This document shows positions 12,510 to 14,819 of a stretch of DNA of 50,462 nt, piece by piece. The notes below the pieces were generated by a model. That model searched no databases. It worked only from the letters and a program-made list of their open reading frames with translations, and had not been told where the DNA came from. The position numbers and the translations under genes are program-made. Location of the stretch: IMG/VR virus record IMGVR_UViG_3300035670_000309, positions 1 through 50,462 of that record; one strand, given 5' to 3'. Source of the DNA: a virus (lineage: Duplodnaviria > Caudoviricetes). Within the stretch, counting starts at the first letter, position 1; every line of letters starts with the position of its first letter.

Positions 12510-13060
12510 TTGGGGCCAGCCGCTGCAAACGGTCTGGCCCCGAGACTGCGGTTACTGGGAGAATTCCCGCAGTTGTGATGCTGAATATGTACCAGATGGT
12601 ACGGATCAAGTCAACATCATCTGATATTCCCCCCAACTGTTACCGGGTCAGCCCTCAAAACCGGATATCTCATCGGGAAGGACCCCCGCCCCTGTCTGGT
12701 TGCCCAATCGCGCCAGACGAGAATGCAGGCATATGAACGGCACGAAGTATAGTACCCACCTATCAGGGGATATTTGATAGAGCCGGGACGGCTGGCCCAC
12801 GTAACGGGTACCTGCTGGATAGGTGAGTGGAATAAGATTGGCCCTCAGCGCGTTGCAGGCCCTGTTATTGGGGATGCCGGGATACGCGGGGGTCTTCTAT
12901 TGTCTAATGGGATGTAGTGCGCCAATAGGTTGAAACAATTTGTAATTGCTCAATCAGACGATTAGCATTGATTGTATTTATCAGATTAATCAAATATGCC
13001 TCTGCGATGAATACGCAGTCGATCCCAAGCAAAAAGCCCCACCTTTCGGAAGGGCTTTCT
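12510..13060 (+). ncRNA. Candidate ~550-nt structured non-coding RNA
   Basis: No ORF of 60 aa or more on either strand. Series of hairpins, with a promoter at the 5' end and a terminator hairpin at the 3' end. Confidence 0.4.
13030..13060. terminator. Probably bidirectional intrinsic terminator
   Basis: aaaaagcccc-acctttcggaa-gggctttct; the T-run is longer on the minus strand. Confidence 0.7.
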
Positions 13061-13097: not shown

Positions 13098-13126
13098 ACT
13101 CTATTGATTTCTGTCTGGGGAGTCAA
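13098..13126 (-). promoter_or_regulatory. Sigma70-like promoter TTGACT-N17-TAGAGT
   Basis: -35 at 13126-13121 and -10 at 13103-13098, beginning 3 nt after the last CRISPR-like repeat. Confidence 0.6.
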
Positions 13127-13129
13127 CCT

Positions 13130-13297
13130 GTCTTTACCAAAAATCGCGAGTAACCGCATGTGGCGGCGTATGCAACACTACCTGTCGTTACCCTCCAAAT
13201 CGCCGGTAACCGCATGGGAACCATTGCAACCCGCTGATTTGCTTGGGTAATTCGTCGCTTTGATCTCACAATCTCGCGACGGGCCGGACATCGGCCC
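13130..13297 (-). CRISPR. CRISPR-like mini-array 2: structured leader, two repeats (33 and 31 nt) and a 23-nt spacer
   Basis: Repeats CATGCGGTTACCGGCGATTTGGAGGGTAACGAC (13216-13184) and CATGCGGTTACTCGCGATTTTTGGTAAAGAC (13160-13130). Spacer AGGTAGTGTTGCATACGCCGCCA. Leader hairpin GGGCCG-ATGTC-CGGCCC. Confidence 0.65.
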
Positions 13298-13326
13298 AAA
13301 TCAGAGAGATTTTACTTCAGGCCCGA

Positions 13327-13542
13327 CTACTTAGCGCCGGTGATAGGATCTTTTTTCGAGGCGCTTTCAGCCCGCGCAATTTCCAACGCCAGACCGTTAG
13401 CGGCAACAACACCCAGCCCGACATAGCCCAGCTTAGAGGCATCTTCCGGCGCAATATTACCATCAACAGAGGCATTCAGAACCCGGTGCAGGGTGTTCGC
13501 AACGTCGCGGGTCTGGTCGTGCATTTCCCTGAAATCGTTCAT
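13327..13542 (-). CDS. Small hypothetical protein translationally coupled to the TnpB-like gene
   Basis: 71 aa; its ATG overlaps the TnpB-like stop (ATGA). Confidence 0.7.
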   Translation of the reverse strand: MNDFREMHDQTRDVANTLHRVLNASVDGNIAPEDASKLGYVGLGVVAANGLALEIARAESASKKDPITGAK

Positions 13543-14819
13543 TTCGCCTTTTCCTTTCGCATCAGCTTCTTTGCCACTTTGGCTGTTTTGACAATCTCGT
13601 TGCCAAGTTCGACAACGTGAGCGGTCTTTTTCTCTGCCACGGTGCCGCCTGCCTCCGTGATTTTGTCTTTAATCAGCCCGACGAACATCGCGGGAGCCAT
13701 GCTCAAGACAAAACGGTTAAACCCTGCTTTCCACTTCACCTTTGCGCCGTGTTCTTTCCGATCACCGGCACCGGTCGCCGTCGCATCCTTGATGCTTTTC
13801 GGCTGGTAGATCGTCACTTCGCCAAACTCGCGGGCGATAGCTGCTGACAGATTATGCAGGCGGTTGGCCCGCTGGTTAGCCTGTCGCGCCTCAAGCCGCG
13901 CCTTCATGGTCCGCAGCTTTTTATAGCGGTTGCTGCCCCGCTTGCACCGCGCCATGGCCTGCTGGATTTGGCCCACGCAGTCAACTTCTTCTCTGGAATT
14001 CCGCAACTCACTGTCGTCACCCTGCGCTTCATGGGCTTCCGCAGGCATCCCGACCACAGCATAGACCACTACGTTCTTGTCGTCACCCCGCATTTCCTGG
14101 GCTTCCGTAGGAGCTTCCCCGTTAAAGCCCTGAAAGTTAAGGGTGATTCGTCCGTCAGAAGCGATAGAAACCGCAACCTCAGGACCGGCGAGACATTCGC
14201 CGTCAACGATCTTCGCAAGCTGCGTCATCAGGTCAAGCCCGATCACGCCCTTCCGAGTCCCAGCCACACGCCGGGATTCTGTTTCAACCGCGACGGAAAG
14301 AAACCACTCTCCGCCACGGTAAAGAATTTCACCGTTCTTGACCGTCCCACCATTCGGCAGGCATCCGCGCATTTTGATCCATCCCTCAATAGACTGGATC
14401 CGAACACGGCCTTTTTTCTCCCCAATTTCGCAGTCCCATCCAGCCTTTGGTTTTCCTAGCGGGAATCCTGAGTAGTACTCTGAACCTTGGTAGCGAGGAA
14501 ATCCAGACGACGCTCCATCTCCTTTTTTGGCGCGAGCAAAGAAAGCTTTATACGCTTCATCAAGGCGCTTCGCCGTCCCGTTCATCGACGCTGAACCTAG
14601 AGCTTTGTAATCATGGTCTACGGCACGAAGCTTAGTGTTGTTGGCAGTCTGATCGAAATACGTAAGGCTCTTTCCACACCGTTCGAAGGCATCAATCCGT
14701 TGCTCCAGAAGAGCATTATACAGGCGGCAATGCAGACTCCGCACCACATCAAGCCGGGCGGCTTGCGTCGCATTCGGATACAGCTTGAAGTTATAGCGAC
14801 GAATAATCATCGCGGCCAC
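13539..14819 (-). CDS. TnpB/Cas12-like RNA-guided protein, probably nuclease-dead, with an in-frame internal array insertion
   Basis: RRYNFKLYPNATQ..., CRLYNALLE, RLDEAYKAFF...GFPRY, RuvC-I VIGLD, KRGSNRY...LHNLS and KAGFNR motifs. RuvC-II reads VTIYQP instead of ..VEDL, and there is no C-terminal CxxC zinc finger or DRD. Confidence 0.85.
   Translation of the reverse strand: MAAMIIRRYNFKLYPNATQAARLDVVRSLHCRLYNALLEQRIDAFERCGKSLTYFDQTANNTKLRAVDHDYKALGSASMNGTAKRLDEAYKAFFARAKKGDGASSGFPRYQGSEYYSGFPLGKPKAGWDCEIGEKKGRVRIQSIEGWIKMRGCLPNGGTVKNGEILYRGGEWFLSVAVETESRRVAGTRKGVIGLDLMTQLAKIVDGECLAGPEVAVSIASDGRITLNFQGFNGEAPTEAQEMRGDDKNVVVYAVVGMPAEAHEAQGDDSELRNSREEVDCVGQIQQAMARCKRGSNRYKKLRTMKARLEARQANQRANRLHNLSAAIAREFGEVTIYQPKSIKDATATGAGDRKEHGAKVKWKAGFNRFVLSMAPAMFVGLIKDKITEAGGTVAEKKTAHVVELGNEIVKTAKVAKKLMRKEKAK
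14013..14201 (-). CRISPR. CRISPR-like mini-array 1 embedded in the TnpB-like coding sequence: leader, two 33-nt repeats and a 33-nt spacer
   Basis: Repeats CCTACGGAAGCCCAGGAAATGCGGGGTGACGAC (14111-14079) and CCTGCGGAAGCCCATGAAGCGCAGGGTGACGAC (14045-14013). Spacer AAGAACGTAGTGGTCTATGCTGTGGTCGGGATG. Leader hairpin GGCGA-ATGTC-TCGCC. Confidence 0.65.

Follow-up and report, generated by a model that had tools for sequence, protein, structure and literature searches.

A CRISPR-like array and leader located in frame inside the gene of a predicted nuclease-dead TnpB/Cas12-like effector in a virus genome

Can one stretch of DNA be translated as part of an RNA-guided protein and at the same time carry the array from which the guides of that protein are made? 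The question is raised by a gene in the virus record IMGVR_UViG_3300035670_000309 (Duplodnaviria; Caudoviricetes), which was analysed over its full length (hereafter, the window). The window is a complete virus record of 50,462 bp, with a 127-bp terminal repeat and 56% G+C. An open reading frame (ORF) on its minus strand, encoding an effector related to TnpB and Cas12, includes two direct repeats separated by a spacer, in the manner of a CRISPR array. Comparison of sequences among relatives strongly supports the presence of a CRISPR-like array with leader in frame inside the effector gene, and the segment 14010-14226 (minus strand), consisting of leader and array, is probably a CRISPR-type guide locus inside the gene of its own nuclease-dead effector. 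The gene and the parts of the array are as follows.

13539..14819, minus strand: effector gene; 426 aa, TnpB/Cas12-like, predicted nuclease-dead (ORF list, profile and structure matches)
14076..14111, minus strand: in-ORF repeat 1; 36 nt, encodes ..PTEAQEMRGDD..; 24/36 identical to the repeat of the relative L184
14046..14075, minus strand: in-ORF spacer; 30 nt, no target detected
14010..14045, minus strand: in-ORF repeat 2; 36 nt, encodes ..PAEAHEAQGDD..

By repeat search of the window, a direct repeat was detected at 14012-14045 and 14078-14111 (34 nt each, 85% identical, 66-nt spacing). With the 36+30+36 boundaries taken from relatives (14010-14111), the two 36-nt repeats are identical at 29/36 positions, and the period of 66 nt corresponds to 22 codons, in frame with the effector ORF. 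A CRISPR array has at least two direct repeats that are nearly identical, 23-55 nt long and regularly spaced, and the window array, with its two 36-nt repeats, agrees with this. The preliminary description of this DNA had proposed a repeat-spacer-repeat in frame inside the effector's own ORF, and this was confirmed, together with the peptides PTEAQEMRGDD and PAEAHEAQGDD; its division into 33+33+33 nt was correct in period and frame, and its boundaries were replaced by those given above. Tandem Repeats Finder did not report the array in the window, as expected when spacers are unlike. Over the whole genome and on both strands, the sole other site reaching 23/35 against the in-ORF repeat was 13216, on the same strand; a score of 23 was reached somewhere in 7/100 shuffled genomes.

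The same layout was found in relatives of the effector, whose DNA was drawn from IMG/VR, metagenome and GTDB loci (L numbers). The proteins P0002-P0008 (35-87% identity) carry a variable insert at the same site, in which 22-aa units (seen for P0004-P0008 in alignment A1) are present in 1 to 5 copies, each composed of some 11-12 conserved residues and then about 10 that are unrelated. At the DNA level, 36-nt repeats and 30-nt spacers were observed in L001, L002 (as L084, L082, L086), L004, L008, L104 and L184. The period was again 66 nt in L198, with a shorter delimited repeat; the units were 72 nt in L101, and 60 nt in one of two in-ORF arrays of L151, at another site of the protein. Copies at the same site numbered 2-5 in DNA, at 91-100% identity, and about 7 in some proteins. 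A search of 1.84 billion representatives with a hidden Markov model yielded 478 proteins at E up to 1e-30. Among the best 150 of these 478, in-ORF periodic repeats were present in 57, the period being 22 aa in 51, 24 in 4, 20 in 1 and 18 in 1, and the same detector gave 0/150 for shuffled controls and 0/53 for canonical TnpB-like proteins. The carriers appear to be phages, and their hosts Alphaproteobacteria.

Several members have features of their own. The 541-aa member L151, on a contig of a Rhodoblastus metagenome-assembled genome (MAG), carries two in-ORF arrays (1699-1905 and 2114-2400), the 60-nt units being in the N-terminal half; the last, degenerate unit of its first array shares 27 nt with a site 8 kb away on the same contig. 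In the N-terminal half, the in-ORF array member L008 (5950-7300) has a frameshift or deletion, and L198 (300-1466) an in-frame stop; these may be decaying genes or assembly errors. Assemblies of L002, L104 and L184 break inside the in-ORF array, and IMG/VR classes the L002 record as linear even though its ends, one additional unit aside, overlap. In databases, loci of this kind are probably under-assembled and wrongly annotated.

Conservation of the insert was then examined at the nucleotide level. Within arrays, 39 repeat pairs averaged 95% identity and 16 spacer pairs 34%, and the repeats were 100% identical within the arrays of L104, L184, L008 and L101. Spacers of similar length and unrelated sequence, as in CRISPR, are present in the 66-nt arrays of relatives (30-nt spacers); the window itself has one spacer. 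All in-ORF units were multiples of 3 (19/19; 60, 66 or 72 nt), as against 24/57 units in arrays outside genes. Across the 11 arrays available as DNA (L277 omitted), no stop codon was found among 659 codons in the coding frame, compared with 11/652 and 33/653 in the other two sense frames. For 21 unique in-ORF spacers of the same set of arrays, the numbers of stops were 0 per 220 coding-frame codons and 31/1054 in the other five frames, giving P(0) of about 0.0014. As the fixed 36+30 geometry keeps the frame by itself, the evidence for selection is the absence of stops together with the other unit lengths; as judged from these codon counts, the open frame of the in-ORF arrays is under selection. 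The preliminary description had raised the question whether the loop varies among homologues by multiples of 3 nt with conserved repeats and variable spacers, which it does, and the alternative between nucleotide-level and amino-acid-level conservation was decided in favour of the nucleotide level by repeat identity and by the non-coding copies described below.

Most of the repeats fold into a central hairpin, with z as low as -3.9 (L004) and -3.6 (L084). An inversion of the central hairpin between the window repeat and those of L184 and L004 was considered and dropped, since identity increased only from 24 to 27 of 36 after 64 cuts. The search for an anti-repeat, as in trans-activating CRISPR RNA, detected only an 11-nt complement in the L004 leader, too weak to be used.

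Upstream of the array in the direction of transcription, the coding sequence includes a second element.

14112..14226, minus strand: leader; the roughly 114 coding nt that precede the array, which match a conserved structured element and are translated in the disordered insert
14186..14202, minus strand: leader hairpin; stem of 6 bp and loop of 5 nt, corresponding to helix 1 of alignment A5, where 5/6 pairs are changed on both sides and pairing holds for 98% of cells

In alignment A5 (9 sequences; L101, L105 and L151 omitted), 95.4% of cells were paired and 12/13 pairs changed on both sides, the structure having been derived from the same alignment that scored it, which favours it. None of 500 shuffles was as good, and slid controls gave 32-45% paired. 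Model R2, built without any window sequence, matched the in-ORF leader of the window at 14112-14219 (76 bits, E 7e-17), and model R1 also matched. By R1 and R2, the leader element was detected before the arrays of L105 and L151 (both arrays) and weakly in L101. The leader-like elements before the two L151 arrays scored 18-20 and 44-45 bits with R1/R2, and a leader-like match was also seen in L198 at 137-248, upstream of the gene start (R1, 24.7 bits, E 8.5e-5).

A second leader-like element with related repeats was found in the window, downstream of the effector gene and outside it.

13228..13297, minus strand: second leader-like element; non-coding, R2 27 bits, E 2e-4, model positions 24-102
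13126..13216, minus strand: downstream mini-array; composed of repeat A (13180-13216), a 19-nt spacer (13161-13179) and the degenerate repeat B (13126-13160)

Of the two repeats, A agrees with in-ORF repeat 2 at 23/35 positions and folds (z -2.1), and B does not fold and includes a hairpin of the terminator type with a run of T (13158-13145). Evidence for the downstream leader comes from R2; plain alignment of the in-gene leader of the window with the downstream region was not significant (equalled by 49/500 shuffles and 36/168 control windows). In appearance, the region 13126-13297 resembles a gene for a single-guide RNA whose guide would be 3'-terminal. A 58-aa ORF (13123-13299) overlaps this region and may be genuine. 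The promoter scan was uninformative (1 site vs 2.2 expected), and a T-rich hairpin seen by eye near 13031-13060 was not called by the terminator/promoter scan. In the relative L004, two further copies of its own in-ORF repeat (100% identical) are present in non-coding DNA downstream of the gene, and the approximately 100 nt before these copies duplicate the in-ORF leader of L004 almost perfectly, with a 2-nt indel that shifts the frame. Elsewhere in L004 (9104-9198, plus strand) there is a sub-threshold Rfam match to the suhB/mmgR small RNA (35 bits vs gathering score 41).

The number of units was found to differ between close sequences. In the circular L002 contig, the overlap between the two ends falls in the array, where one end has a repeat plus spacer more than the other, and the window differs by one 22-aa unit from P0002, its closest relative, which is down to one repeat. 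In a further relative, detected in run X5 and differing at 84/1137 aligned letters, window positions 13993-14077 are replaced by 70 other letters. Since a unit of 36+30 nt amounts to 66 nt, or 22 codons, the frame stays intact when complete units are added or removed. In a tree of 31 rows (L008 and L198, with frameshift or stop, and L209 and L187 omitted), members with the array in the ORF are basal or paraphyletic, those with the array downstream form a nested clade, and L004 has both; the tree is rooted on three canonical TnpBs with only moderate support (87/91). The label of array position required 2 changes on this tree, and 0/500 shuffles required as few.

These observations bear on the possibility that the in-ORF stretch of the window is the relic of a CRISPR-type array, tolerated as a disordered loop, any guide being produced from 13126-13297 or none being produced. 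Such decay would agree with window repeats that match at only 29/36 positions, compared with complete identity in L104, L184, L008 and L101, with their weak hairpins and the single spacer without target, with the collapse to one repeat in P0002, and with the better folding of downstream repeat A, followed by its 19-nt spacer and terminator-like site. Yet the in-ORF leader is the best-preserved copy in the window (76 bits, as against 27 downstream), repeat B downstream is itself degenerate, and the replacement in the run X5 relative falls exactly at the array, which suggests turnover rather than simple decay. We regard the relic as a somewhat unlikely explanation, though the strongest rival to a guide locus at 14010-14226.

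The nature of the effector was examined by profile and structure comparison. It scored 111 bits against the NCBIfam model guided_TnpB (cut-off 100), and its best PADLOC matches were the models Cas12u4 and Cas12f (E 1e-20 to 1e-17). The family profile detected the ISDra2 TnpB structures in the PDB (E 7e-24), PHROGs assigned phrog_506 'transposase' (E 1.6e-36), and the Pfam families HTH_OrfB_IS605 and OrfB_IS605 were both just below their gathering scores. The AlphaFold model (mean predicted local distance difference test, pLDDT, 66) matched TnpB, Cas12f and dCas12f structures in Foldseek, the best being 8exa (E 2.4e-17). Alignment with canonical TnpBs indicated that the RuvC-I Asp (D196) is kept in the window effector, that the column of the RuvC-II Glu is occupied by Q in the window and by K, A or R in P0003-P0005, and that the window effector and its relatives end before the RuvC-III and zinc-ribbon CxxC motifs; the Pfam zinc-ribbon family PF07282 was absent from P0002-P0010. 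The protein has the TnpB fold and profile without the complete RuvC triad and zinc ribbon of an active nuclease. Because the RuvC-II Glu, RuvC-III and zinc ribbon are missing, the effector is predicted from its sequence to be a nuclease-dead, RNA-guided DNA binder of the Cas12/TnpB type rather than a TnpB nuclease. Compared with ordinary TnpB, it has an insertion of about 70 aa (residues about 207-276), located between the RuvC-I strands and the following helix. Residues 207-276 are the translated leader plus array, and with pLDDT of 22-47 and no secondary structure they are predicted to be disordered. The preliminary description had taken the effector for a TnpB with an insertion of about 60 aa that typical TnpB lacks, and had anticipated a disordered loop: the superfamily, the absence of the insertion from typical TnpB and the disorder (pLDDT below 50 over 207-276) were all supported, and the nuclease activity and the size of the insertion were revised.

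The CRISPR character of the repeats is further indicated by relatives without in-ORF repeats, in which ordinary arrays were found downstream of the gene (16 copies in L103, 6 in L007 and 9 in L091). The array of L103 is composed of 36-nt repeats and spacers of mostly 36-39 nt. Arrays outside the gene were also detected in L003, L087, L207 and L209, and irregular ones on both sides of the gene in L095 and L098. As judged by eye, the repeats of ordinary and in-ORF arrays share the same length (36-37 nt) and the same 3' end. Association with a Cas effector, as for CRISPR, was observed in two forms, the array being inside a Cas12/TnpB-like gene and orthologues having adjoining arrays. The irregular arrays of L095 (1644-2129 and 3970-4256) and L098 (1385-2133 and 3349-4580) have spacers of 16-59 nt, unlike a ruler-based CRISPR array, and in this clade an open frame upstream of the gene start continues through the upstream repeats. 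The Elstera MAG holding L104 includes the locus L283 (G005 contig C245), where Cas1 is encoded in a 658-aa frame with arrays of about 37-nt repeats on both sides.

Matches of spacers were then located in phage genes. In-ORF spacer 1 of L004 is identical at 30/30 positions (30-31 nt) to a sequence inside the replication-initiator gene (phrog_1032) of the same phage, where it is read in a different frame. In-ORF spacer 2 of L104 matches at 27/30 positions, the first 22 being contiguous, within a portal gene of the lambda family that lies on a different contig of the L104 MAG. When 74 unique spacers were compared with 2.04 Mb of collected DNA, one convincing non-self match was obtained (that of L004), the rest being 15-21-nt matches at chance level; the array spacers of L103 gave no target match.

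With these results, the repeats can be considered as protein. A P-E-x-G-x-D linear motif could be carried on variable linkers, its nucleotide identity being maintained by unequal crossing-over or gene conversion and the RNA having no function; the recurrence of a similar peptide motif in many clusters, the frame that is always open and the predicted disorder of the loop are what would be expected from it. It does not account for the copies of repeat and leader that L004 and the window carry where no frame is conserved, for spacers that are mutually unrelated, for a spacer that equals a stretch of another gene in another frame, or for the repeat length (36-37 nt) and 3' end that, by eye, are shared with the ordinary non-coding arrays of relatives. 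Since Pro and Gly codons are mutually complementary, the peptide motif may itself be the translation of a hairpin. A purely protein repeat is judged improbable.

Repeats inside a phage gene could also be sites for a DNA-binding protein, such as origin iterons or a pac site near terminase genes. The lambda O gene has its origin iterons inside the gene; such iterons are short, recur about every 20 bp next to an AT-rich region, and are bound by the initiator that the gene encodes. The effector gene is located about 1.1 kb upstream of the gene for the terminase small subunit, most repeats are palindromic, and several contigs break in the array, all of which would suit binding or packaging sites; the breaks are, however, explained by unit polymorphism. 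Compared by spacing and by encoded protein, the window array departs from lambda O-type iterons in its period of 66 nt with unrelated 30-nt spacers and in a protein that is TnpB-like and not an initiator. The 66-nt period with unrelated 30-nt spacers, the matches of spacers to phage genes, the long ordinary arrays of relatives and the structured leader with compensatory changes all argue against DNA-binding sites, which we consider very improbable.

Against a guide locus at 14010-14226 the following points have to be set. The window has only one in-ORF spacer, and its two in-ORF repeats have weak folds (z -1.4 and -0.6); across the family, RNAalifold detected no fold shared by 12 repeats, and for this reason hairpin potential is claimed for single repeats only. 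Across the family, a P-E/Q-x-G-x-D pattern is common to the peptides encoded by the repeats, and a role of the peptide is possible. In Rfam, neither CRISPR-DR nor any other family of relevance was matched by the window region or by the loci of five relatives. Matches were obtained for only 2/21 in-ORF spacers examined; the spacers of the window, in-ORF and downstream, had no match above chance in its own genome, and window spacers searched against GenBank phages gave nothing better than E 0.1-0.3. Because the effector is without the RuvC residues, self-processing of the TnpB type is unlikely and another ribonuclease would be needed. Of the adaptation genes, Cas1 (PF01867) was searched for and found in 0/7 virus records. 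Adaptation by the host in trans was tried as a candidate and rejected: the Elstera MAG, the only host-like one with Cas1, has arrays whose repeat bears no relation to that inside the ORF. According to PMC10691335, an adaptation module is absent from many type V-U loci. None of the sequencing runs listed as containing the locus is of RNA. As the window array is minimal and degenerate, it is possibly only weakly active.

Most likely, the locus serves to supply guides to a dead effector that represses phage genes. By analogy with TnpB, which makes its omegaRNA from its own mRNA (PMC10278001), and with TldR, dCas12f and Cas12m, the transcript of the effector gene, or an internal transcript of the same strand, would double as guide precursor. 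The dead effector loaded with a guide may bind to matching DNA in phage genes, such as those for the replication initiator and the portal in relatives, and block their transcription; the repression could serve for regulation of the phage itself or for exclusion of related phages. Cutting of guides from the mRNA would, by the same analogy, lower the synthesis of the effector.

A joint reading of the whole family goes further and is offered tentatively, as a possibility with less behind it than the guide locus itself: the effector mRNA would be the precursor CRISPR RNA, either translated or cut, the spacers would pass a filter of translatability, and the dead effector would be a switch for phage development or exclusion. 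The leader plus 36+30-nt array inside the ORF may then represent the ancestral state of the family, and the fate of every transcript, translation or cutting, would build in feedback. New spacers would need a length of 30 nt and no stop codon, and the CRISPR array would evolve under a double code. The effector might be aimed at the replication initiator of its own phage or at essential genes of related phages.

Next to the effector gene, one further ORF was noted.

13327..13542, minus strand: small ORF; 71 aa, overlaps the effector stop, with an ORF of similar size after the gene in most relatives

The 71-aa ORF gave no match to any Pfam or PHROG family. An ORF of 68-121 aa is located at or overlapping the effector stop in 14/16 loci examined (for example, window 13327-13542, L004 6170-6409, L086 687-920 and L103 3326-3565), and a helical A-x-N...D-h-x-x-R-h-A-x-P-K pattern, recognised by eye, is common to about 10 of these small downstream ORFs. 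The product may be a conserved partner protein.

The arrangement is of interest in several respects. Known guide-RNA loci are located beside effector genes or overlap their 3' ends; here, array and leader are inside the ORF and are translated, and at least 57 diverged clusters keep this in-ORF layout. Given an active array, a single transcript would end either as effector or as guide, a simple design for feedback; translation would constrain the content of spacers; and the whole would make up a compact, self-contained RNA-guided DNA binder of about 400-500 aa carrying its own guides. The family also bears on the origin of type V arrays from TnpB-like genes, members with the array in the ORF being basal and those with the array downstream nested in a tree of weak rooting. 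Such loci will be wrongly annotated by gene callers and by CRISPR finders alike. Literature search of full texts, with the supplementary V-U6 to V-U45 listing (PMC10691335) outside its range, found no natural array inside an effector ORF.

Among known systems, TnpB with its omegaRNA is related by fold family and by the use of one transcript for both coding sequence and guide scaffold. TnpB uses its RuvC residues for 5' processing of the omegaRNA, whereas the window effector is without them. The omegaRNA overlaps tnpB at the 3' end of the gene, from whose mRNA it is cut (PMC10278001), while the RNA element described here is located in the middle of the ORF, consists of a leader and a repeat-spacer array instead of a scaffold and one guide, and is translated. 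The TldR proteins, encoded by prophages, have a single guide RNA next to the gene. They are TnpB-like nuclease-dead repressors (bioRxiv 10.1101/2023.11.30.569447; PMC13472631); compared by description only, the window effector resembles them in its derivation from TnpB, in its inactivated or truncated RuvC and in the expected RNA-guided DNA binding and repression. The available text of PMC13472631 describes no array or in-ORF guide locus for TldR. TldR and dCas12f combine a nuclease-dead TnpB/Cas12f homologue with a guide RNA directed at promoters or genes; observed here were a RuvC predicted to be dead and two spacer matches, both located within genes. The dCas12f proteins are nuclease-dead Cas12f homologues with C-terminal truncations, some of them beside CRISPR arrays (PMC13472631). 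In a comparison made without phylogeny, they share with the family a truncated RuvC, nearby arrays, predicted regulatory targeting and scaffold-like repeats, and the window model resembles the structures 9n9c and 9n9m. Their arrays and guides are, according to the same available text, intergenic, and those linked to rpoE are in Bacteroidetes (PMC13472631); the present arrays are in phages with apparent Alphaproteobacteria hosts.

The Cas12m proteins of type V-M differ in size, being about 600 aa long (516-604 residues for the Cas12m chains in the PDB) as against 426 aa for the window effector, for which the best PADLOC models were Cas12u4/Cas12f. Arrays of Cas12m are intergenic. Likeness to type V-M and V-U is seen in a type V effector, inactive in cleavage and carried on a mobile element, that blocks transcription without adaptation genes (PMC11656645, PMC10691335), as predicted here. 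Virus-borne CRISPR mini-arrays, as described there, are short, with spacers that match related viruses (PMC11656645). Those mini-arrays are stand-alone, whereas the array of the window is inside the gene of its own effector. For their function, virus mini-arrays rely on the Cas proteins of the host; the array described here is carried within the coding sequence of the protein that it would guide.

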